Positions 38,613 through 64,000 of a DNA stretch of 64,000 nt are shown piece after piece. The position numbers and the translations under genes were made by a program. The notes under the pieces were generated by a model, which made no database searches, was not told the origin of the DNA, and saw nothing but the letters and a program-made list of their open reading frames with translations. Source of the DNA: an uncultured virus (IMG/VR IMGVR_UViG_3300020056_000010) (taxonomy: Duplodnaviria > Heunggongvirae > Uroviricota > Caudoviricetes); the IMG/VR virus record IMGVR_UViG_3300020056_000010. One strand, written 5' to 3'. How positions within the stretch are numbered: the first letter of the stretch is position 1; the number at the start of each line of letters is the position of its first letter.

Positions 38613-39244
38613 ATTTCTACTTGCTCCATATCATTTTCTGCTCTATGAATAGCCTGAATCCGAAGGATGTCTGCTGCGACATCATGTCTGCTATCATGAG
38701 CACTAAATACTTTTTCCCATTGCTCAGTATCTGCAACGGGTACGAATCCATTCTTTGTTGTAAAGTTAAACTTCGCATCAATAAATGTACGAGTATCACG
38801 TATACGCCAGTAAGGAATGTACTCGTTTAGAAACTTGTCCTTGCCTACGGCCATTGCCATATGATCTAGAATAACTGGGTCAAAACCGTTTGAACGGCTC
38901 CACCAGTAATCAACTTTATCTTGAGTACGAAGATATCCGATCATCTGCTCAATAAACTGTGGTAGCTTAAGATCATCTGGCTTTGGTTTTAAAAGCTTAC
39001 GAACTTCTGGTGCTTGCTGTAGCCACCAATCAAGATCTGACTTTTGATATTCAAAGTCATAGTTCTTTATTTGATCTTGCAAATCAAGTTTTGCTTTTTG
39101 AATGATACCTAAAAGTTCTTGAAAAGAATAAGGCTCATCAAGAAAGCGATCCCATACAAATGTTGCATAAGAACACTCAATGCCAGGCGCCTTACGAGCA
39201 CACTGGCCAATTGTTTCAAAGTCTAGGATAAAGTCAGTTCTCAT
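38609..39244 (-). CDS. dexA: 3'-5' exonuclease, DexA-like (DEDD family)
   Basis: ILDFETIG, WWLQQ, WSRSNGFD, RDTRT, HDSRHDVAAD. Confidence 0.8.
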   Translation of the reverse strand: MRTDFILDFETIGQCARKAPGIECSYATFVWDRFLDEPYSFQELLGIIQKAKLDLQDQIKNYDFEYQKSDLDWWLQQAPEVRKLLKPKPDDLKLPQFIEQMIGYLRTQDKVDYWWSRSNGFDPVILDHMAMAVGKDKFLNEYIPYWRIRDTRTFIDAKFNFTTKNGFVPVADTEQWEKVFSAHDSRHDVAADILRIQAIHRAENDMEQVEI

Positions 39245-40449
39245 AGAAAAGCCTCAAGTGTAGTAATGTTTTCTTGGTATTCAAGCTTCTGAGTACCATT
39301 ATACTGCAAAATGTAATCGGTGTCAACCATTTTTCTTAGACCTTTAAGTGTTGCTAGAACCTCTGTGGCCATGTCTGTGGCTGTTTGCACAGGGACATTT
39401 TGGCAAATATGATTTGCTACCTTAGGGCCCGCATCGACCAATTCAAAGTCTTCGGGCAAGCCCATGATTGACATAGCTTCTCGGTAATTAATAAATCGAT
39501 CTTCATCAGGATGAGTAAGCATAGTAGGATAGTGGCCAACGAAAGCGCCGATACGATCTTTTGGAACAATGACACCTCTTCTCATAATCGACCCACCCTT
39601 AGCAAGTTTCTCATGTTTATAGTGGCACTTATCAACTTCTTTCTCAAAACCGTTTGCAGCCATCCAGTCAGCAACTTCATTATAAGTTTTACCTGCTCTT
39701 TCGATATAAGAGAAAGAATCCACACCACGAGCTGACGTTGGATCTACATCGCGAGAATGCTCTGTATGAGTTTTGCCTCCTTCAATCTCTTCAAGAATGT
39801 ACTTATAGTACGGGTTGTCGGAAGGCTTTTTAGTATTGATAGGTTCAGTTTGAAAGTTTGATTTTACATTACGAATTAATTCTTCGATTGGTGTGTACTC
39901 ACGATTGTAGTATTCAAAGATTGGTACGCCGTTATCTCGTTTCCAGAAGAAATAAAATGAGCGTTCTCGTACCTGTGGAACACCATGAAGTAGAGATCTA
40001 GTCCGGTATACACTCATCGTATATCCATTGTCCTTACCAATCTGTTTCAATTGATTACGAACATTAGTTCCAATCTTACCAGCAAATCCTGGAGCGTTCT
40101 CGCCCCAGAAACAGTCTGGTCTATATTCACCAAGAATATACTTTGCAGTCTCAATCATCCATTTGTTGTTTTCGTTGTCGTCACCGTATCCATGTGACAT
40201 CATTGATAAACCAGCGCATGGACACACTGATGATACAACATTTGCTCTTTCGCCTGGCGGTGGCCTATGTCCTTTATCTAGAACATAATATGGAATCTTG
40301 TTGTCGTAATAATTTAGAATATGTTTGTCATTACCAGCAAAAGGTTCATATGACATAAAATGAATTGGAGGTGCACCAAAGGCTCGATGGGAACCAATAG
40401 TTTCACCTCCAATTAGTGGTACGATACTTGCGTGGGTAATATCACTCAT
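39241..40449 (-). CDS. C5-cytosine DNA methyltransferase-like protein with atypical SAM-binding motif I
   Basis: Motif IV CPCAGLS, VI ENAPGF, VIII GVPQVRER, IX REAMSIMGLPEDF, X QNVPV; motif I reads VPLIGG instead of FxGxGG. Confidence 0.75.
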   Translation of the reverse strand: MSDITHASIVPLIGGETIGSHRAFGAPPIHFMSYEPFAGNDKHILNYYDNKIPYYVLDKGHRPPPGERANVVSSVCPCAGLSMMSHGYGDDNENNKWMIETAKYILGEYRPDCFWGENAPGFAGKIGTNVRNQLKQIGKDNGYTMSVYRTRSLLHGVPQVRERSFYFFWKRDNGVPIFEYYNREYTPIEELIRNVKSNFQTEPINTKKPSDNPYYKYILEEIEGGKTHTEHSRDVDPTSARGVDSFSYIERAGKTYNEVADWMAANGFEKEVDKCHYKHEKLAKGGSIMRRGVIVPKDRIGAFVGHYPTMLTHPDEDRFINYREAMSIMGLPEDFELVDAGPKVANHICQNVPVQTATDMATEVLATLKGLRKMVDTDYILQYNGTQKLEYQENITTLEAFL

Positions 40450-41447
40450 GCTAAAAACTTTCTCACTGTTGAGAGCGCTGTGCTCACAGCCTGATGCATA
40501 TCAAGATAGGCATACAAACCGCAGCGACCGATAAAGGTCATATGCTCTGGTATTTCGGCTTTATATTTTTTGTATAGCTCTCGGTTCTTACCATCGCGAT
40601 CTTTTACTGGATAATAACGTTCATAGTTATTCTCAGAGTAATCGCATGGTTCCTCGAACGTTAGCGTTGTGATATATTTATTATCGCCGTGACAGGGAAT
40701 ATTCTTCCATTCAGTAACACGAGTCTTTGGGCCGTGATGAGTAAAGTTTACAGTAGCGGTTGGTAATGCCCGTGGAATCGGCAGGCTTACAGTCTCAAAC
40801 TTGATTGAACGATATGGAAGCTTATCATATTTCCATTCAAACCATTCATCAATTGGCATAGAATTAAACACATGATCGTATTCTTTATCCATATGATAAT
40901 TATATTCAGTATTTAAAGATACAGTTATATTGTGGTGAGTGAGAATGTTCTCAACCATTTTAGTATAGCCATGCCGTGGCATGAATTGTATCTTATCATT
41001 TGGAAAGTATTCTTCGTTGTAATCATCACGAATAGGAACTCGATTGATAATATCAGGATTCAACTGATCAAGTTCGACACCCCACATCTTCTTGGTATAA
41101 GGTCTGAAGAATACGTCGAGAACATTCTCCTCACCGACAATATCTTTTGTTTCACGATTTACTGGTAATGTGACGTATTGTCCATCCGAGAGTTGAGCTT
41201 TAACTTTGTGCCGATACTCAACCCACTCAGTAAACTGTGAAAGCCATTCAAATACTTCTTCATTATTAGTATGAAATAGATGAGGACCATACTTATGAAC
41301 TCGAATGCCATGTTCATTCTCATAATCATATGCATTACCGGCTACGTGATCTCGTTTATCAATTACATCTACATTATGTCCTGCTCTTGCAAGCTCACGA
41401 GCAACCACACAACCTGATAGACCCGCACCTACTACTAAATACTTCAT
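40446..41447 (-). CDS. glf: UDP-galactopyranose mutase
   Basis: VVGAGLSG FAD motif, HVAGNAYD, VHKYGPHLFHT, LPYRS, ERYYP, GRCGLYAYLDMHQ. Confidence 0.92.
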   Translation of the reverse strand: MKYLVVGAGLSGCVVARELARAGHNVDVIDKRDHVAGNAYDYENEHGIRVHKYGPHLFHTNNEEVFEWLSQFTEWVEYRHKVKAQLSDGQYVTLPVNRETKDIVGEENVLDVFFRPYTKKMWGVELDQLNPDIINRVPIRDDYNEEYFPNDKIQFMPRHGYTKMVENILTHHNITVSLNTEYNYHMDKEYDHVFNSMPIDEWFEWKYDKLPYRSIKFETVSLPIPRALPTATVNFTHHGPKTRVTEWKNIPCHGDNKYITTLTFEEPCDYSENNYERYYPVKDRDGKNRELYKKYKAEIPEHMTFIGRCGLYAYLDMHQAVSTALSTVRKFLA

Positions 41448-46243: not shown

Positions 46244-46272
46244 AATATAGTACATTTGCTAGTGAATGTCAA
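46244..46272 (-). promoter_or_regulatory. sigma70-type early promoter
   Basis: AAAAAGGG-TTGACA-N17-TATATT-ACTAT; near copy of the promoter at 47156-47184. Confidence 0.75.
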
Positions 46273-46286
46273 CCCTTTTTTTCATT

Positions 46287-47126: not shown

Positions 47127-47155
47127 GTTGTTTCCTTTTCATTCCTTATAATAGT

Positions 47156-47184
47156 AATATAGTACTTTGGAAGGCAAATGTCAA
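47156..47184 (-). promoter_or_regulatory. sigma70-type early promoter
   Basis: AAAAAGGG-TTGACA-N17-TATATT-ACTAT with an A-rich UP region. Confidence 0.75.
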
Positions 47185-47284
47185 CCCTTTTTCGCACTTT
47201 TTTTCAAATAAAATGAAAAAAGATTTGCAAGGAAATCAATGGCTTATAAAATAAATAGTAAATAATTTGCAATAGGGGTTAAAA

Positions 47285-55175: not shown

Positions 55176-55764
55176 ATTTTAATCCATTATACATATCAAT
55201 TGGCGCATCCCATTCAGCAGGGTTTGCTATACTGTTTACTATTCCATTTTTAAATGTGTTGTGTGGAATCTTTTCGTGTACAAGAAACCTATCAATGCCT
55301 GGATACTTTCTCATGAAGTAATCCTTATTAGATAGAAAGTGTTCCCATACATCATGTTGCTGTCCTGCCGTCCATGTAATTACAGAACTATTTATGTGCA
55401 CGTCATAGGCATGCGGAGCCATGTACAGATCATCTTTCCAATAATCTTTAAGTATTGTTAGACCATCCCATGTAATAAACTCAGACGGATCTCTTTTAAT
55501 ATCCATATCTAAATCAAAGTAAAGACACTTACCTTCTACAGGAAAGTCTTTACTGAACATAGCAAGCTTATTCCACCAGTATTTTAGTTTTGGTTTTTCA
55601 AATACTGGAATACATGGAATAGCTACACCGTAAGTATCGTCTGTATAACAATAGAATTTTGCTAATGGAAAATACTTTACTAATTGTTCTGTTAATCTGT
55701 TTACGTGTTCATAGTTATACTTATCACCGTGTTTTACGAATATAATGTTTAACAATCCTGCCAT
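55150..55764 (-). CDS. Glycosyltransferase (GT-A, GT8-like)
   Basis: VKHGDKY, FYCYTD, WWNKL, LYFDLD (DxD), NSSVITW. Confidence 0.75.
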   Translation of the reverse strand: MAGLLNIIFVKHGDKYNYEHVNRLTEQLVKYFPLAKFYCYTDDTYGVAIPCIPVFEKPKLKYWWNKLAMFSKDFPVEGKCLYFDLDMDIKRDPSEFITWDGLTILKDYWKDDLYMAPHAYDVHINSSVITWTAGQQHDVWEHFLSNKDYFMRKYPGIDRFLVHEKIPHNTFKNGIVNSIANPAEWDAPIDMYNGLKYELQRTDL

Positions 55765-56825
55765 CTGAATCCTCGTATGCCATTCATAATTTCAATTTTA
55801 CGATATAACTCATCGTACATAGACTGATCAAATTCAGACACTAATCCTTGATTGACTGTATCTAATTCTTCTTGTGTTCGAGTAGTTAAATAGTTCATTT
55901 CAGGCGGATTAAATAATAGATTATAACTTCTAAGTTCATTGTCTCCTATAAACACGTGCGGATTATCAGCATAAAAATCATTGATTTCTTGCATATCAAG
56001 TATATTAAAATAAGATACAGTAGGAACTACTTTCGGGACAATACCAGCTTCTTCGTTGAGCTTTTTAATTGTTTCTAGTGTATTGTTAAAATTAGTTCCA
56101 CGTATCCATTCATATTTTCTGCCAATATGATCTAGACTCGCTACCATTTCTACTTTTTTAAATTTTTTTAAAGTGTTCATAAATCGTTTTGAAATTAAAG
56201 AACAATTTGATGTAAGCCACACAGTACAATCAGGATTTACTTCTGCTAACTCTTCAAGTATTTTAGCATTTCGTAGATCAGAAAAAGGTTCACCACCTTT
56301 AATATGCAATACATGCAGATCAGGCAATAAGCTTATAATCTTTTCAATATCAGACTCAGTCAAATTAACATGAGGCTGTTGATGATTACCAAATAAATGA
56401 TCGATTGTGGCCCATTTAGTACTGAAATAACTACTACACATTATACAAGTTTGGTTGCAAATATTGCTTGTAGTAAATTCTAAATAACTAATCTTTCCCG
56501 GCTCATATTTTCTCCATTCTGGATTCAGCCAATAGAATGCTCCAGCGTGGGTGCCATCTTTTTGTTTTATTCTTGAAGCACAATTATCGCATGCAACAGT
56601 TCCCATAATACCTTTTTCTTCAAGCTCTCGTCTTATATGCATATTCAAATCAGAGTAGGGAAAGTCTTCATATTCAGTTGCCGTAGCAATTTTGTATTCT
56701 TCTATACTATCAGTTGCAATAATTTCATTTATGTGTCTAGTGAATACCATGCAACAAGGCTTGAGCCAACCTTGTGGATCAATTACTAACGCATGATCTG
56801 GCCATCTACATGCGGGTATATTCAT
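55749..56825 (-). CDS. Radical SAM protein with N-terminal SPASM/twitch-like domain
   Basis: C...PCC...CDNC N-terminal cysteines; CNQTCIMC; GGEPF. Confidence 0.88.
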   Translation of the reverse strand: MNIPACRWPDHALVIDPQGWLKPCCMVFTRHINEIIATDSIEEYKIATATEYEDFPYSDLNMHIRRELEEKGIMGTVACDNCASRIKQKDGTHAGAFYWLNPEWRKYEPGKISYLEFTTSNICNQTCIMCSSYFSTKWATIDHLFGNHQQPHVNLTESDIEKIISLLPDLHVLHIKGGEPFSDLRNAKILEELAEVNPDCTVWLTSNCSLISKRFMNTLKKFKKVEMVASLDHIGRKYEWIRGTNFNNTLETIKKLNEEAGIVPKVVPTVSYFNILDMQEINDFYADNPHVFIGDNELRSYNLLFNPPEMNYLTTRTQEELDTVNQGLVSEFDQSMYDELYRKIEIMNGIRGFRWQDC

Positions 56826-57988
56826 TTCAGTCGCTCAATATATTGACGATACATTTCAATATTTTTAATGCAAATTTGTTCATCAGTACCAAACTCAATC
56901 AGAGCATTGTTTAAATAGTTTCTAAGCTTATCTAAATACTCTGGAGTCTCTTCTTCTACTGCCCAAGGTGCGATATCTTGCGGGGATGTTGTTCCACCCA
57001 TAGGAGCCAAGACATGATAGGCAAAAGAAAGATTTTTTCTATTACAAAATGATACTATTTTAGGCAAAGTCCACACGTTATCTTTACTAATCACAAATGA
57101 ACAACCGACATCAGCAACACCATATGATTGAAGTTCATCTATATGTTTTAAAACCGTTTCTAAATTACCATTTCTTCTTAAATCTTGATATATCTCAGGA
57201 TCAATTGAATCTAATGAAATCGTAAATTCAGTGTTTGGCCTTTGAGCAAATTTTCTTGCGTATCCATTTAAGATACTACCGTTTGTTGTAAATTGAATGC
57301 GAAGATTTTCTGGGTTTTCCTCCTCTACCATCTTAAGAATTTTATGTACTATTCTTTGAGCAAATGGCTCCCCGCCTGTAAAGTTTAATTTATAAACTTC
57401 ATGTATAATTTCACGTAAAGATTCTACGAAAGCATCACCAACTTCTGGATCATCATATATACTTGTAAATCTATGCGCAGTTTCTGGATTCTTCTTTACA
57501 AAATCTTCCATATGTTGAGAAGAATGATATGGACTGCAGAATTTGCATTTATAATTACAAGTATTTGAAAGTTCTAATTCTATATCCCTTGGAACAGGAT
57601 GATTTAAGTCTCTCTCACCACCTACCCAGTCTGCATCTAAACTGCTTGGAGGTTTATCTGCATCGCATTGCTCTTTGCAATACCTGCACCATTCATGCAA
57701 ATCACCCATCATAGAAGCTTGACGAATTTCTTCAAAGCCTTCATCATTTTGCCATAGATCTCTTAAGCTGTCTCCTGGTTTCCATCGTGCCTGATTGGTA
57801 AAAGGATCTTTTTCGTAAGGTGTAGTATCTTTATGCTCTCTTACATGGCGCATAACAAAAGGGCAGACCTTTAAATTGCCTTTCTTATTAATATGAATAG
57901 CTTGAAAAGGCGCCCAACAACTTACTGTTTTATATAAAGCTGGTAGTTCGGGTCTTCTATACTTGTTAATTTTATCGACGTATTTCAT
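56822..57988 (-). CDS. Radical SAM protein with N-terminal SPASM/twitch-like domain
   Basis: CWAPF...VCP...CRYC; CNYKCKFC; GGEPF; TTNG; ISLDS. Confidence 0.9.
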   Translation of the reverse strand: MKYVDKINKYRRPELPALYKTVSCWAPFQAIHINKKGNLKVCPFVMRHVREHKDTTPYEKDPFTNQARWKPGDSLRDLWQNDEGFEEIRQASMMGDLHEWCRYCKEQCDADKPPSSLDADWVGGERDLNHPVPRDIELELSNTCNYKCKFCSPYHSSQHMEDFVKKNPETAHRFTSIYDDPEVGDAFVESLREIIHEVYKLNFTGGEPFAQRIVHKILKMVEEENPENLRIQFTTNGSILNGYARKFAQRPNTEFTISLDSIDPEIYQDLRRNGNLETVLKHIDELQSYGVADVGCSFVISKDNVWTLPKIVSFCNRKNLSFAYHVLAPMGGTTSPQDIAPWAVEEETPEYLDKLRNYLNNALIEFGTDEQICIKNIEMYRQYIERLK

Positions 57989-59184
57989 TTATATTCCTTT
58001 AAATATGGAGCCAACTCATATATGTCTTCGTTATTTTCTCGTGCTACTAAACAAAAATCAATCCATTCAATCATTCTTTTTCTTATTTCCGCAGGAGTTT
58101 TAAACGGATCTATTGTTGTTTCAACACTCATTACATTGTTTAAATTACTTACATGCAGTTTATCACTTACCCAATATGTGTCTGATCTTTTAGTAAACTT
58201 AGATTCTAAATAATCAAATAGATTTTTCTTTCCTTCTTCCTGATGTTGTATTGTTAAGAAGTTAGGTGAACAATACTTTGGAAACGTTACAAGGTTCGCC
58301 ATACTGATACGAGGAACACCTGGCACATCAATAAAATAATCAATGAGTTCTGGAAGATGCATCCAGTTATAAACCGAAACAGTGGATACTACGATAACAT
58401 GCCTGCCTGCATATTTATGATATCGTTTAATGTTGTTTATTGTTTTTTGAAAATTGCCTCCTCGGATCCAATCATACATTTCATGCACACCGTCAATGCT
58501 TGCTTGGACATGAACTTCATCGATGCGATGTAGCAACTCAATTACATAATCAGTAACTAACTGAAAATTAGTGCAAATCTCAACACGGCACTTCGGATTC
58601 GTTTCAGCAAGCTTTTTAAGGATAAGAATATTATTTGGATCGGCAAACGGCTCGCCACCTTTAATCGTAAGATGCTGTAGATGTGGTACTAGATCTAATA
58701 CCTTATCCACATCTTCTTTCGTCATCTTATACATTTCAGTATGAAACTTGTGGTTCTCATCTCGCCAAGTAAGGCCAGATTCTACAGCCATTTTCTCATA
58801 TGGCGCCCATTTAGAACTATACTTACCAGAGCAAGTAACACACATCTGGTTACAAATATTGCTCGTAGTAATTTCCAAAAATCGAATCGGAGTAATTGGC
58901 GCGTCTTTATCTTCTTCATATGTTGGAAAAATAAAGCGATTATAAGAATCGAAACGGGCTATACGACCAGCTTCCCAGTGTACCTTACACACGTTACATT
59001 GTTTTGGAAAGTTACCTTCTTTAAAATCTTTACGAAGCTTATCATAAACTTCACCATTAAAGAACTCAGTAAGATCAGGAACGTCTTTAATATGAGATAT
59101 AGCTGTGTTGTCCCCAGCACAACATAGAACTATTTCGCCAATAGGATTAATTGTTATTCCTGTTTCAGGCACCATGCATTTCAT
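57985..59184 (-). CDS. Radical SAM protein with N-terminal SPASM/twitch-like domain
   Basis: C...LCC...CNVC; CNQMCVTC; GGEPF; ASIDG..YDWIRG. Confidence 0.9.
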   Translation of the reverse strand: MKCMVPETGITINPIGEIVLCCAGDNTAISHIKDVPDLTEFFNGEVYDKLRKDFKEGNFPKQCNVCKVHWEAGRIARFDSYNRFIFPTYEEDKDAPITPIRFLEITTSNICNQMCVTCSGKYSSKWAPYEKMAVESGLTWRDENHKFHTEMYKMTKEDVDKVLDLVPHLQHLTIKGGEPFADPNNILILKKLAETNPKCRVEICTNFQLVTDYVIELLHRIDEVHVQASIDGVHEMYDWIRGGNFQKTINNIKRYHKYAGRHVIVVSTVSVYNWMHLPELIDYFIDVPGVPRISMANLVTFPKYCSPNFLTIQHQEEGKKNLFDYLESKFTKRSDTYWVSDKLHVSNLNNVMSVETTIDPFKTPAEIRKRMIEWIDFCLVARENNEDIYELAPYLKEYK

Positions 59185-59773: not shown

Positions 59774-61747
59774 TTATGCTGTGCCGGCGTATTGGAATTT
59801 ATAATAACCGGTATCAATAATATTTGATCCTGCAGCATCACTTGCAATTTCAATTTTATATGTTAGATACTGCCCAGTACCATATGATGTAAGGGTTCGA
59901 GAATCAGCAAACAAAAACTCAACAGAATTGGCTGCTGTAGCACCTGGCTGTAATATATGCCACGTATTCATTGCATCGCCTTGTTGTGTTATGGTGCCAG
60001 TGCTTGTTCCACTATCAACTGTTCCACGAACATAATAAGTACCAGCAAAATAGTTTGAGAAATTGATATCACTATTGGTTGCCGAATTCCTATAGTCTGA
60101 CCAGTTTTGCATTGTTGTAGCAGACCAACTCGTGCCGCCGCCATAGTCATTTCCGTGTTCAACTTTACCGGATATGTTAACCCCTGTAGCTAGTCTAAAT
60201 CCATGTTTAGTTCCATGCGTTTGTTCGGCTGGGTTTGTTTTTGGAGTTCCTTGTGTACCTTCTAATCTTATATTATCGCCTTCTAATTGATTATGGTAGT
60301 AACCTGTTGAAACAATATTACTACCTCCGCTATCAGTTGCAATTTCAATTTTCCATCTATGGAATTTTGTATTATAAACGGGTGGGTTTGCAGTATCTGT
60401 AATATTCCAAGAACGTGATGTTGTATTATCTAAAGTTAACCAAGTATTTAAGCTATCTCCTGAAGTTGTCAGACCGCTATTAGAGTCAATGGTTGCTCTA
60501 ATATACCATGTTTGTGTTGGTCCAGAATTAACCCAATCGGCGTGGTTATTAGCGCTATATTCAGGAGTTCTAGTAGAATCCCGATCTTCAACAGTAGCAT
60601 CGCTGTTAAATCTCCATCCAAGTGTAATGTTGTTAGTATCTTTTTGTGCATAACCATTAACGTGTTCAGTTGTTTCAGGCACTGATTGAGTCCCTTCAAG
60701 AGATGTGGTTTCAGCAGCTGAAGGTATACCTTGATAAATCTTAAATGATTGGCTTTGTACAACCGTTGTGGTACCAGTTGGAAATTCTTGTGTACGATAA
60801 TCGTTAGTGTTAACATAAAGCTGTTGATAGTTACCACCGCCTCCAGCACTTCCGTCTGGAGTACGACGTTCGTCTATATACAGTGCACCATTTAGAACAC
60901 CATCAGATCCGTCTACATTATATGAGAGTTGATACTGACCAGCAGAGTTTGAAGACAGATAGTATCTCAAAAATTTATTCATAAGAGTTGACCAAGACCC
61001 TGGAGTATGGGCATTGATTCTATTGTTTGCAAAATCCCAATATATTGGAAGTTGGTCATAAATTTCTGGATAGGAAGCTGCAGGATAATCTACTTTTGCT
61101 AGATAATAATTCGTATCGATAGTTTGTTCTACTGCTTCCGGAATACCTGAGGCTGTATAAGCTGCCGTATCTGATACTTTGTTTATTGCTATGGGTGTAG
61201 TACTGACAAGTGAAGCATTAGCTGGCGATGCTGACGTGGTAATGAAATACGTTCCGCCTTTTGCAGCAGTCTGTCCACCGCCACCAAACTGAGTTAAAAC
61301 CGGAGCCACAAAAGTATCATAGAAGTCTGAAATTGTCATAGCTCGCAAGTGAGTATTGATATCTTCACCTTCTTCACCGTCTGGATTATACAAGTATAAA
61401 GGATACTCGTGATTATTTGCATCTCCAGAAGGCGCTGATACGGCATCTGTTACTTGACGAATACGTGAATAGTTCTCAGTAGTGAGTACAATATCTGCTG
61501 TTTCTGCTTCAGTTGCAAATCTATCAACACGAGTACTATAAGCACCGGCTACATAAAATGTATCTACGAAAGGCTGTCCTGAAATGACTGAGCCGTTTGA
61601 GCCTTGTACTTCTAGTGATGGATTAGGATCTTGAGCAAAGGCATATCCTGCAAACTCATGAAGAGCTGTCATATATGTTGAATCGCCTTCTGCAATTTGG
61701 TTCGTACCTGATGCGTCTGATAAGAAAAGTGGTGATCTTACTGCCAT
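59774..61747 (-). CDS. Putative virion structural protein with duplicated C-terminal domain
   Basis: Ser/Thr/Gly-rich; NDYRTQEFP motif; two repeats LEGTQ...NTW...KIEIA.D..GSNI..TGYY. Confidence 0.65.
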   Translation of the reverse strand: MAVRSPLFLSDASGTNQIAEGDSTYMTALHEFAGYAFAQDPNPSLEVQGSNGSVISGQPFVDTFYVAGAYSTRVDRFATEAETADIVLTTENYSRIRQVTDAVSAPSGDANNHEYPLYLYNPDGEEGEDINTHLRAMTISDFYDTFVAPVLTQFGGGGQTAAKGGTYFITTSASPANASLVSTTPIAINKVSDTAAYTASGIPEAVEQTIDTNYYLAKVDYPAASYPEIYDQLPIYWDFANNRINAHTPGSWSTLMNKFLRYYLSSNSAGQYQLSYNVDGSDGVLNGALYIDERRTPDGSAGGGGNYQQLYVNTNDYRTQEFPTGTTTVVQSQSFKIYQGIPSAAETTSLEGTQSVPETTEHVNGYAQKDTNNITLGWRFNSDATVEDRDSTRTPEYSANNHADWVNSGPTQTWYIRATIDSNSGLTTSGDSLNTWLTLDNTTSRSWNITDTANPPVYNTKFHRWKIEIATDSGGSNIVSTGYYHNQLEGDNIRLEGTQGTPKTNPAEQTHGTKHGFRLATGVNISGKVEHGNDYGGGTSWSATTMQNWSDYRNSATNSDINFSNYFAGTYYVRGTVDSGTSTGTITQQGDAMNTWHILQPGATAANSVEFLFADSRTLTSYGTGQYLTYKIEIASDAAGSNIIDTGYYKFQYAGTA

Positions 61748-62197: not shown

Positions 62198-62395
62198 CTA
62201 TCCACGGTCGTATCGGCGTAATCTCTCCTCTCGACCTATTCTCTTACCATAACCAAGATCTTTCATAATTCTCATACGCTCTTCTTCAGCGTAATTAGAC
62301 CATTCAGAGATCTGTTCTTTCGTTCTACCACAGCCTATGCAATAACCCTTAGAAGGATCAATATAACAGATAGACATGCATGGTGTTACGTACAT
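62198..62395 (-). CDS. DUF1289-family small Cys-rich protein
   Basis: TPCMSIC.....GYCIGCGRTKEQISEW pattern. Confidence 0.8.
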   Translation of the reverse strand: MYVTPCMSICYIDPSKGYCIGCGRTKEQISEWSNYAEEERMRIMKDLGYGKRIGREERLRRYDRG

Positions 62396-62413
62396 TATCG
62401 ACCTCTTTATTTT

Positions 62414-62427
62414 CTATTTATAAATAG
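62414..62427. promoter_or_regulatory. Palindromic bidirectional T4-type late promoter
   Basis: CTATTTATAAATAG is a perfect 14-bp palindrome with TATAAATA on both strands, between divergent genes. Confidence 0.7.
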
Positions 62428-62478
62428 TATTGTGAACTCTTCGGCATGAATTTGAACTTAATTATATAGGAGATTAAG

Positions 62479-62790
62479 ATGGCTGAAGACAACGGTTACC
62501 ATCCAGCGGATACAAACGGCGACGGTGTTGTAGATGATATCGAACGCGAAATGTATCTTGAATTTAAAAGAAAAGAATTAGAAGACAAGGACGCACAGCG
62601 TGATGCAATGCGTGGGATGACTTGGTTTGCTTTATTCGGCATGCTACTTTATCCATTTGCAATTGTCTTAACATCATATTTTGGACTAGATACTGCAGCA
62701 GGAATCGTTGGTGATATTGCACCGACATATTTTGTTGCTATTTCTGCTTTGGTTGCAGCATTCTTTGGTGCTGACGCTATCCGTAAGTAG
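62479..62790 (+). CDS. Small two-TM membrane protein with an EF-hand-like loop (holin candidate)
   Basis: DTNGDGVVDDIE fits the DxDxDG...E Ca-binding loop; two hydrophobic helices; AGGAG SD. Confidence 0.6.
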   Translation: MAEDNGYHPADTNGDGVVDDIEREMYLEFKRKELEDKDAQRDAMRGMTWFALFGMLLYPFAIVLTSYFGLDTAAGIVGDIAPTYFVAISALVAAFFGADAIRK

Positions 62791-62796
62791 ATAAAT

Positions 62797-62829
62797 CAAA
62801 AGGGAGGCCTTCCTAGGTGCCTCCCTTTC
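62797..62829. terminator. Bidirectional intrinsic terminator
   Basis: AAAAGGGAGGC-N10-GCCTCCCTTT stem with T-tracts on both strands. Confidence 0.8.
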
Positions 62830-63193
62830 TATCTGTTTGTTTCGATGTACAGCACCCGGCTAGCTTTCCATTCGGTACTAGCGACTCACCGACCATCCAA
62901 AAGCTGCAGACTTATGGATGGATTTTTTTGGGTACGTTCGCGTAATTGCAGGCTTTCCCCGTGCGCCATAAGTAACGAGGACTGAGTTCTTACTGCCTGG
63001 TCGAGTTTTCCTCAGTCCTCGCTAATTCTGGTTTTCACGTCACCGGTATTTCACGGGCGGTATATTCACCAGAATGTTCTTGCCCGACCTTGTTTACTCA
63101 CGACGCGCAGGCTACGTCAGGCAATATATCTCTTTAATCCATTTTTGCCACTTTAGCGGCTGAGGGTTTGGAACCTCTCAATATTGCCTTGAT
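62798..63193 (-). ncRNA. Candidate large structured non-coding RNA (~390 nt), class not recognised
   Basis: No ORF >=60 aa; GC-richer than the flanks; many inverted repeats and two potential pseudoknots; bounded by a sigma70 promoter and a terminator. Confidence 0.65.
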
Positions 63194-63199
63194 ACTATT

Positions 63200-63227
63200 A
63201 ATATATACTTTTTCTAGTAAATGTCAA
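63200..63227 (-). promoter_or_regulatory. sigma70-type promoter driving the candidate ncRNA
   Basis: AAAAGGG-TTGACA-N16-TATATT, the same family as the early promoters at 46244 and 47156, with no downstream ORF. Confidence 0.7.
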
Positions 63228-63247
63228 CCCTTTTATTGAATTTTTTT

Positions 63248-63448
63248 TCAAATTTCTTCTACCGTTACCTTATACAACTTACCGTTGAAGTCTTCCATAG
63301 TAATGGTTTTCTTCGTTGACAGCATGTAACCATCGATAGGATGCAAATCCATTTTTACTCTACCAACCTGAGTAATCTTATTTTCTGGTTTATCATTGTT
63401 GAAAGCGGTACTGATCACGTGTGCGATATAGTCGCAATAAGCCAACAT
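63248..63448 (-). CDS. Hypothetical protein
   Basis: 66-aa ORF with GAGGA SD. Confidence 0.65.
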   Translation of the reverse strand: MLAYCDYIAHVISTAFNNDKPENKITQVGRVKMDLHPIDGYMLSTKKTITMEDFNGKLYKVTVEEI

Positions 63449-63916: not shown

Positions 63917-63945
63917 ATTATATCAAAGTTTGAAAGAGCTGTCAA
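63917..63945 (-). promoter_or_regulatory. sigma70-type early promoter
   Basis: AAAAAAAGGG-TTGACA-N17-TATAAT with an extended -10 TG. Confidence 0.8.
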
Positions 63946-64000
63946 CCCTTTTTTTGAAAAAACTTTACGAAATCTAAAAATAATTCGTAAGCTACTTCCT

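Follow-up and report, generated by a model that had tools for sequence, protein, structure and literature searches.

What an uncultured T4-like myovirus encodes in the longest stretch of its DNA free of open reading frames is the question addressed here. The DNA analyzed, referred to throughout as the window, comprises 64,000 nucleotides of IMG/VR record IMGVR_UViG_3300020056_000010, and an earlier note made from its letters alone had described the stretch as a single structured non-coding RNA of ~390 nt, transcribed from the minus strand between its own promoter and terminator and containing two potential pseudoknots. Our analysis points to a real, structured non-coding locus that is probably transcribed, the RNA of which (~400 nt) is a chain of five autonomous modules, A, B, C, D and E, followed by a terminal hairpin T (Table 1). 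All module families are absent from Rfam, and A and E-T represent at least two well-supported new families.

Coding gap, fold and genome context

The gap between positions 62791 and 63247 (457 nt, six frames) is the longest ORF-free stretch of the window, the runners-up measuring 158 nt and 174 nt with ORFs counted from 50 aa and from 60 aa, respectively, and the largest ORFs within it are 46 aa and 42 aa long. This rank had been recognized before, as had the base composition of the region, its GC content of 0.46-0.505 exceeding that of the adjacent DNA (0.31-0.43). Folding of the minus strand yielded -142.4 kcal/mol (z -6.91), a value reached by none of 100 shuffles, whereas the plus strand folded at z -3.09. 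Along with the covariation found in A and E-T, this difference supports the earlier claim of a structured minus-strand non-coding RNA. G-U pairs were frequent in the covarying helices, e.g., six at pair 4-77 and six at pair 9-72 of A, and since they correspond to C-A mismatches on the opposite strand, they fit an RNA on the minus strand.

A search with the 4227 models of Rfam 15, including RNase P, tmRNA, 6S, group I/II introns, ribozymes, GOLLD, ROOL, HEARO and manA, yielded nothing that reached gathering score anywhere in the window, in line with the proposed novelty of the RNA. At E<=10, ten weak matches of chance level were obtained in 62700-63300, mostly on the terminal hairpin, the best of them reaching 21 bits where the gathering score is 92. 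ARAGORN called no tRNA or tmRNA genes in the window and RF00005 was absent from the E<=10 matches in 62700-63300, and the statement that hallmarks of tRNA, tmRNA, RNase P, introns and CRISPR are lacking was upheld. RNase P RNA had been considered as a candidate for the size of the region and a resemblance of GGUCGGGC and GGGGAAAGCC, and was discarded because no Rfam match was found and the modules are permutable. Comparison of the RNA region with 50,697 GenBank phage records by blastn gave no match, and the clusters of related phages matched these records through tRNAs only.

The window carries Pfam genes for gp5, gp6 and gp9/10-type baseplate proteins, a clamp-loader subunit and a tail-tube cap protein, together with three radical-SAM genes and one C5 methylase. 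The gp6-like baseplate protein is best matched by Sinorhizobium phages phiN3 and phiM12 (40% identity), followed by Caulobacter phage Cr30 and the marine Melnitz phages. The nearest cultured relatives of the RNA-carrying phage group are alphaproteobacterial phages, e.g., Sinorhizobium phiN3/phiM12, and all phages related through the modules are uncultured. The sequencing runs containing the stretch are labelled as salt-marsh metagenomes. Searching the small flanking ORFs against PHROGs and Pfam brought no result with a bearing on the RNA. The three radical-SAM genes are adjacent, two of them with SPASM domains, and adjoin a 657-aa Gly/Thr/Ser-rich protein without family, followed by a pair of small paralogous ORFs and a DUF1289 Fe-S protein; this region (55749-59184, 59774-61747 and 62198-62395) may be a peptide- or protein-modification cluster. 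The C5 cytosine methylase gene adjoins a gene for UDP-galactopyranose mutase (39241-41447), a pair that may be related to DNA or surface-sugar modification.

For the convergent gene adjoining the RNA region (62479-62790), IMG/VR contains at least 596 relatives, and the DNA downstream of these relatives differs. Among 80 such loci, 77 share nothing with the window in this part, the full RNA region was found in the window's own contig only, and two (L004 and L005) have in common with it a piece of 69 nt, located behind a promoter and immediately 5' of a tRNA. On contig G002, which contains an identical locus, two tRNA genes are located ~13 kb from it, amid protein genes and free of modules A to D; hence, the RNA locus is not simply the tRNA cluster of this phage. 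The spacer between these two tRNAs (L267, G002:C1:22700-24400) contains a hairpin with a UACCGAAU loop, then CCCUAGGUCG, which recalls module E.

Modules of the RNA and their order in related phages

Covariation among homologues, which had been proposed as a check on the RNA, exceeded both shuffle and slid-partner controls for A and for E-T. In the alignment of module A (A2, 23 distinct sequences), 91.1% of cells were paired, and in 14 of 23 pairs both partners had changed. Such double changes were counted in 101 cells, against a shuffle mean of 33.6 with 0 of 500 shuffles as high, and the covariation score was 0.542 vs at most 0.092 with slid partners. In the E-T alignment (A3, 15 distinct sequences), 95.8% of cells were paired and double changes were present in 9 of 24 pairs; here 45 cells were changed in this way (shuffle mean 15.4; 0/500 shuffles as high), at a covariation score of 0.363 vs at most 0.133 with slid partners.

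Table 1. Predicted features of the RNA locus and metatranscriptome contigs placed over it (positions in the window).
Feature	Position	Strand	Remarks
sigma70-type promoter (predicted)	63200..63227	minus	-35 TTGACA 63227-63222, -10 TATATT 63205-63200, spacer 16
Module A	63076..63192	minus	5' leader RNA, ~115 nt; covariation, 23 distinct sequences
A-P1	63119-63127/63181-63189	minus	encloses P2 and hairpin P3
A-P3 hairpin	63147-63160	minus	covariation support
A-P4 hairpin	63102-63118	minus	covariation support
Module B	63025..63075	minus	imperfect ~50-nt hairpin; fold z -3.7; invariant 44-nt core
Module C	62973..63024	minus	14-bp hairpin with conserved 24-nt loop; fold z -5.5
Module D	62927..62972	minus	two short hairpins and conserved single strands (GGGGAAAGCC ... 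GUACCCA)
Module E	62830..62926	minus	P1, P2, P3 and candidate pseudoknot; 15 distinct sequences
E-P1	62893-62899/62915-62921	minus	hairpin in 15/15 homologues, stem sequences differ
E-P2	62859-62863/62878-62882	minus	covaries
E-P3	62833-62836/62849-62852	minus	
Terminal hairpin T	62797..62829	minus	11-bp G+C-rich stem; terminator-like on both strands here
Contig of run X19 over the RNA	62866-63181		depth 22.9; next upstream contig from 63230
Contig of run X20 over the RNA	62359-63174		depth 10.8; next upstream contig from 63230
Contig of run X21 over the RNA	62923-63173		depth 11.5; next upstream contig from 63285
Contig of run X3 over the RNA	62866-63408		depth 13.9; spans promoter

All helices that had been read directly from the letters found a place in the modules. 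The first of them is P1 of A, with double changes in 7 of 9 pairs, and two of the claimed hairpins are P3 and P4, both supported by covariation. The stem of P4 covaries (GACG/CGUC vs GUGG/CCAC in 8 of 23 sequences), and its loop GCCUG (63108-63112) is complementary to CGGGC (63082-63086). RNAalifold, unaided, recovered P1-P3 of A plus the GCCUG:CGGGC pairing. The covarying P4 stem and the invariant loop pairing would together form a candidate H-type pseudoknot inside A. Another H-type pseudoknot inside A, GAGG/CCUC across P2, is not taken to be general, being possible in the window-like subset only and mismatched in 'GAGUGG' variants. The covariance model R1 scored 125 bits at module A and found no second copy in the window.

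The claimed helix 63025-63032/63068-63075 is, as judged from the fold, the closing stem of module B, the core of which is identical but for 2 positions across 7 distinct flank contexts. That at 62976-62986/63011-63021 is the stem of module C, which shows compensatory changes in a few variants: among 3 distinct copies, the stem is GAGGACUGAG/CUCAGUCCUC vs AAGGAAUGAG/CUCAUUCCUU. The second hairpin of module D covaries in 8 distinct copies (UGC/GCG, AGC/GCU, GAC/GUC, GCAA/UUGC); the single-sequence fold of D (z +1.1) was no better than that of shuffles, which makes D the weakest module. Both E-P1, which forms in all 15 homologues, and E-P2, for which covariation was found, had been read before. 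The second of the claimed pseudoknots, the candidate one of E (62872-62876/62888-62892, UCGGU with ACCGA), had 96% of cells paired and is invariant but for 3 broken terminal pairs, so that covariation speaks neither for nor against it. Among the 23 variants of A and the 15 variants of E-T, the unpaired loops UAGCCUGCG, AAGGUCGGGC and UACCGAAU are invariant.

Related loci were collected with sequence patterns. That for A, made of two invariant words of the 69-nt piece common to L004 and L005, gave 14 viral loci and 24 true metagenome loci among 28 returned; a search of 185,579 species genomes brought up just 2 hits, both due to chance and lacking A-like flanks. A looser A pattern returned 36 loci from viral contigs, 22 of which were chance hits in high-GC coding DNA, and was set aside. 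The E pattern returned 61 loci with 25 true E, the remainder being unrelated and mostly of one coding family, and the C pattern 29 loci, 5 of them true and representing 3 distinct copies.

The modules occurred in various orders. The order promoter-A-B-C-D-E-T of the window was found as well in L085, L092 and L226 (window type), and L094 and L227 have A-B-C-D-E-T plus an insert, being mosaic relative to the window; the full chain is confined to these two types, i.e., to about 3 distinct genomes. L083 has the order C-A-B-D-E-T, and L088, L093 and L212 have B-A-tRNA-tRNA-E-T. Of the 23 distinct variants of A, 14 have a tRNA called by ARAGORN 42-205 nt downstream of the point where the A motif begins, and one has a tmRNA. 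The gap from the end of A to the tRNA (Asn, Gly, Pro or Thr) is often just ~9 nt, and a promoter match is located 112-119 nt upstream in 9 of 23 variants. By these positions, A is a portable promoter-proximal leader. In L082, L086, L091, L203 and L228, A is followed by an ORF of ~60 aa and then by a permuted alpha-type tmRNA with the tag ANDNVAPSDYALAA; as A heads these units, the tmRNA uses the same leader as the tRNA operons.

Module B follows A in the window, L083 and L094, precedes it in L084, L088 and L093, and is embedded in L193, L201 and L202 at the tip of a hairpin belonging to another, larger RNA. In L083 and L205, module C precedes A; in L213, it comes after a tRNA. Module D was always found immediately 5' of E, and in L132 a protein gene's stop codon marks the start of D-E-T. 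E and T close clusters in L088, L144 and L158, and E-T lies downstream of a gp32-like gene that encodes the usual acidic tail (L141) and of a gene for a Gly-rich membrane protein (L142, L174). By this placement after tRNA operons and protein genes, D-E-T is a portable 3' end module. In the relatives, leader A and the 3' module bracket tRNAs, permuted tmRNA, manA-like RNA or small ORFs.

Predicted promoter, terminal hairpin and metatranscriptome contigs

The proposed minus-strand sigma70-type promoter was found as a consensus match only, TTGACA-16-TATATT agreeing with the consensus at 11 of 12 positions. On its 5' side lie GGG and an A-rich stretch, and the predicted start is near 63193. As the promoter scan gave 9 promoter-like sites in 2 kb vs 5.2 in shuffles, the match taken alone is weak. 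The first helix had been said to begin a few nucleotides past the start, and P1 of module A indeed opens ~4 nt after the predicted one. Early expression of the RNA is suggested by the promoter type alone. The word GGGTTGACA occurs at four minus-strand sites of the window (63940-63948, 63222-63230, 47179-47187 and 46267-46275), one copy being contained in the 158-nt ORF-free gap at 47127-47284; together with the upstream A-tract, it looks like a common early-promoter word.

Hairpin T had been taken for a terminator. The 11-bp G+C-rich hairpin is present and its stem appears in the folds of both strands, but the minus strand was not called by the terminator scan, because the loop measures 10 nt and just 4 U follow the stem. 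In the 15 sequences compared, 100% of the cells of the stem were paired, double changes were present in 5 of its 8 pairs, and the loop contained one of two 6-nt palindromes, CCUAGG or CUGCAG, in 15 of 15. The U-run after the hairpin is missing in 6 of the 15 homologues; hence, T is not merely a terminator. The palindrome CUGCAG is also present in the E-P1 loop of the window type (loops 62808-62819 and 62903-62912). The palindromes kept in the loops of the 3' module could reflect loop-loop self-pairing, or sites at the DNA level.

The stretch is contained in six metatranscriptome runs, and contigs of four of them were placed on the locus; as assembled contigs, they carry no strand, end or processing information. 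In three of the four runs the RNA contig ends at 63173-63181, 12-20 nt short of the predicted start, a weak hint that the transcript starts at the predicted promoter. Contig ends alone were used here, as depth (10.8-22.9 over the RNA vs 2-6 for most flanking contigs in the RNA runs) and uncovered stretches cannot rank expression.

Known RNAs and the possible role of the locus

The tRNA gene cluster of T4 ends with rnaD (species 2) and rnaC (species 1) according to the T4 annotation, and PMC9697503 still calls the function of these RNAs unknown. Modules A to E resemble them in that, in the relatives, they are likewise found with tRNAs of T4-type phages; the window locus differs in having no tRNA. 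In addition, T4 RNA C, as read from its sequence, contains a T-arm and an acceptor end, and neither was detected in the modules by ARAGORN or RF00005. The covariance models R1 (A) and R2 (E-T) gave no matches in the T4 genome at E<=1 and nothing significant in phiN3, phiM12, Cr30 and Melnitz-3, where the best R2 match reached 13 bits (E 0.09). As positive controls, R1 matched 5 of 5 and R2 4 of 4 records known to carry the respective module.

Another structured RNA of marine T4-like phages is manA (RF01745; PMC2864571), which has been proposed to be a cis-regulatory element of the 5' UTR. Matches to manA below threshold (40.6 bits vs gathering score 55.2) lie between tRNAs downstream of A in L081 and L089, and an Rfam scan of nine related loci returned tRNA, tmRNA and this sub-threshold manA as the only matches; by contrast, 62700-63300 contains no manA match even at E<=10, and the modules here have no following gene. 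GOLLD, ROOL and HEARO are structured non-coding RNAs of unknown function that are often carried by phages and lie near tRNA genes. The present RNA has no Rfam match, is shorter and consists of separable modules. A two-piece tmRNA and a riboswitch are encoded by marine T4-like phages (Melnitz, pelagimyophages), with non-coding RNA cargo just downstream of an early promoter (PMC9004378). Similarly, A heads a unit with permuted alpha-type tmRNA in L082, L086 and L091, whereas the window has no tmRNA, and the A and E-T models have no match in Melnitz-3. The leaders, spacers and trailers of bacterial tRNA operons (e.g., 3'ETS-leuZ) and the 3' ends of mRNAs release functional sRNAs, some of which share the terminator of the mRNA. 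By analogy, A and D-E-T would occupy the same leader and trailer positions; their degree of structure is far above that of typical sRNAs acting by seed pairing. PMC10690425 presents a catalogue of 8,495 candidate structured RNAs from IMG/VR with DNAVirus_X alignments, which may contain pieces of the modules; five query strings were absent from the six of its files that were searched. No description of the modules was found in our literature search.

We consider it probable that the stretch is a tRNA-less 'stable-RNA operon' of uncultured marine/estuarine T4-like myoviruses, the modules of which are cut apart and act individually. Behind a predicted host-type early promoter lies a minus-strand region of ~400 nt with five autonomous domains and a terminal hairpin, in which A is the leader, B a plug-in hairpin, C a long hairpin with a conserved loop, and D-E-T the 3' end module. 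In analogy to T4 RNAs C and D, the transcript might be cut at AU-rich linkers into separate small stable RNAs; the locus is without tRNAs that could direct RNase P or RNase Z cuts. Once released, the modules would each bind a protein or RNA partner via their invariant unpaired loops, and they may be more than passive end-protection.

It is possible, though unlikely, that the locus is a cis-acting scaffold or relic instead, with A and D-E-T as 5' leader and 3' stabilizer/terminator, B, C and D as spacers, and the tRNA cargo lost, so that what remains would have no role of its own. The 5'-most position of A at the promoter and the 3'-most position of E-T, around varied cargo, fit purely cis roles (stability, termination) equally well; E-T or D-E-T closes protein genes too, A-P1 sequesters the 5' end shortly after the predicted start, and the phage has tRNAs elsewhere. 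However, simple hairpins suffice for end protection, yet long unpaired stretches are invariant throughout the 23 and 15 variants, and at least three diverged cargo-less forms (window, L094 and L083) persist with their compensatory changes intact. The U-run missing from 6 of 15 T hairpins, and module A standing alone between promoter and terminators in L087, speak as well against such a scaffold. A distinctly unlikely reading goes further in the other direction and regards the modules as new classes of trans-acting phage RNAs that bind specific partners, A, B and E being decoys or effectors. These three, with their pseudoknots and invariant loops, would then be aptamer-like and aimed at host proteins, e.g., RNA-processing or defence factors, while the 3' module would self-associate by its 6-nt loop palindromes into RNA-RNA assemblies; if true, the cassette-like reshuffling would represent a phage toolkit of plug-in RNA parts.

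The claim of one ~390-nt RNA of a single class did not hold, as its parts occur apart, reordered and even nested in another RNA, and the ribozyme, decoy or anti-defence roles suggested for it are conjectural. An integrated RNA machine of this length, the domains of which cooperate via tertiary contacts, appears highly improbable to us, despite the strong fold of the whole minus strand (z -6.9) and the identical full chain in several contigs (L085, L092 and L226). The contact that would best represent it, the claimed pseudoknot 63054-63058/63082-63086, pairs GCCCG of B with CGGGC of A, i.e., it joins two modules usually found apart. Of the 23 distinct A variants, 19 keep CGGGC with no B in the vicinity, and B keeps GCCCG without A in 4 loci, so the contact is not required; moreover, CGGGC has an ever-present alternative partner inside A. 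The full chain, known from about 3 distinct genomes, provides too few sequences for covariation between modules. The cassette-like reshuffling, the palindromes in two hairpin loops and the position in a hyperplastic genome part, as seen in the 77 of 80 neighbor-gene loci that differ downstream, would also suit an element acting at the DNA level, such as a replication origin, a recombination hot spot or a mobile promoter/stem-loop cassette. Such an element, like a short protein gene, is scarcely credible: the fold is strand-asymmetric (z -6.9 vs -3.1), G-U pairs occur in covarying helices, and the region is present in RNA libraries with a contig break at the promoter, while the ORFs are at most 46 aa long and run across modules that are shuffled independently of each other.

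If the stable-RNA operon is the right explanation, phage 'tRNA clusters' may be regarded as broader stable-RNA operons, and the tRNA-free version would serve as a natural experiment on whether the accessory RNAs can function by themselves. Small stable RNAs of phages have been known since T4 RNAs C and D, with their function still unexplained. The uncatalogued, covariation-supported families described here form a reshufflable set around tRNAs, tmRNA and gene 32 in abundant marine/estuarine myoviruses, and A and E-T provide RNA biologists with new families with candidate pseudoknots.

Several further elements were observed in the related loci. Another uncatalogued structured RNA, 'G', in L193, L201, L202, L089, L204 and L225 is closed by CAUACG...CGUAUG with 5' GUCUGUGYAGAGG and extends, e.g., over ~170 nt around the B motif in L201; B is located at its hairpin tip in some copies, and a short hairpin takes this place in L089, where 'G' had no Rfam match at E<=0.01. 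Between A and tRNA-Thr, L084 and L088 carry a tRNA-like element with the T-arm GGUUCGAUUCC, an 11-bp closing stem and a large odd insert, which was called neither by ARAGORN nor by RF00005. L081 and L090 have in common, after the first tRNA, a small motif (…AACGGUGAC…GC.GGGAGAGACC…) between tRNAs.
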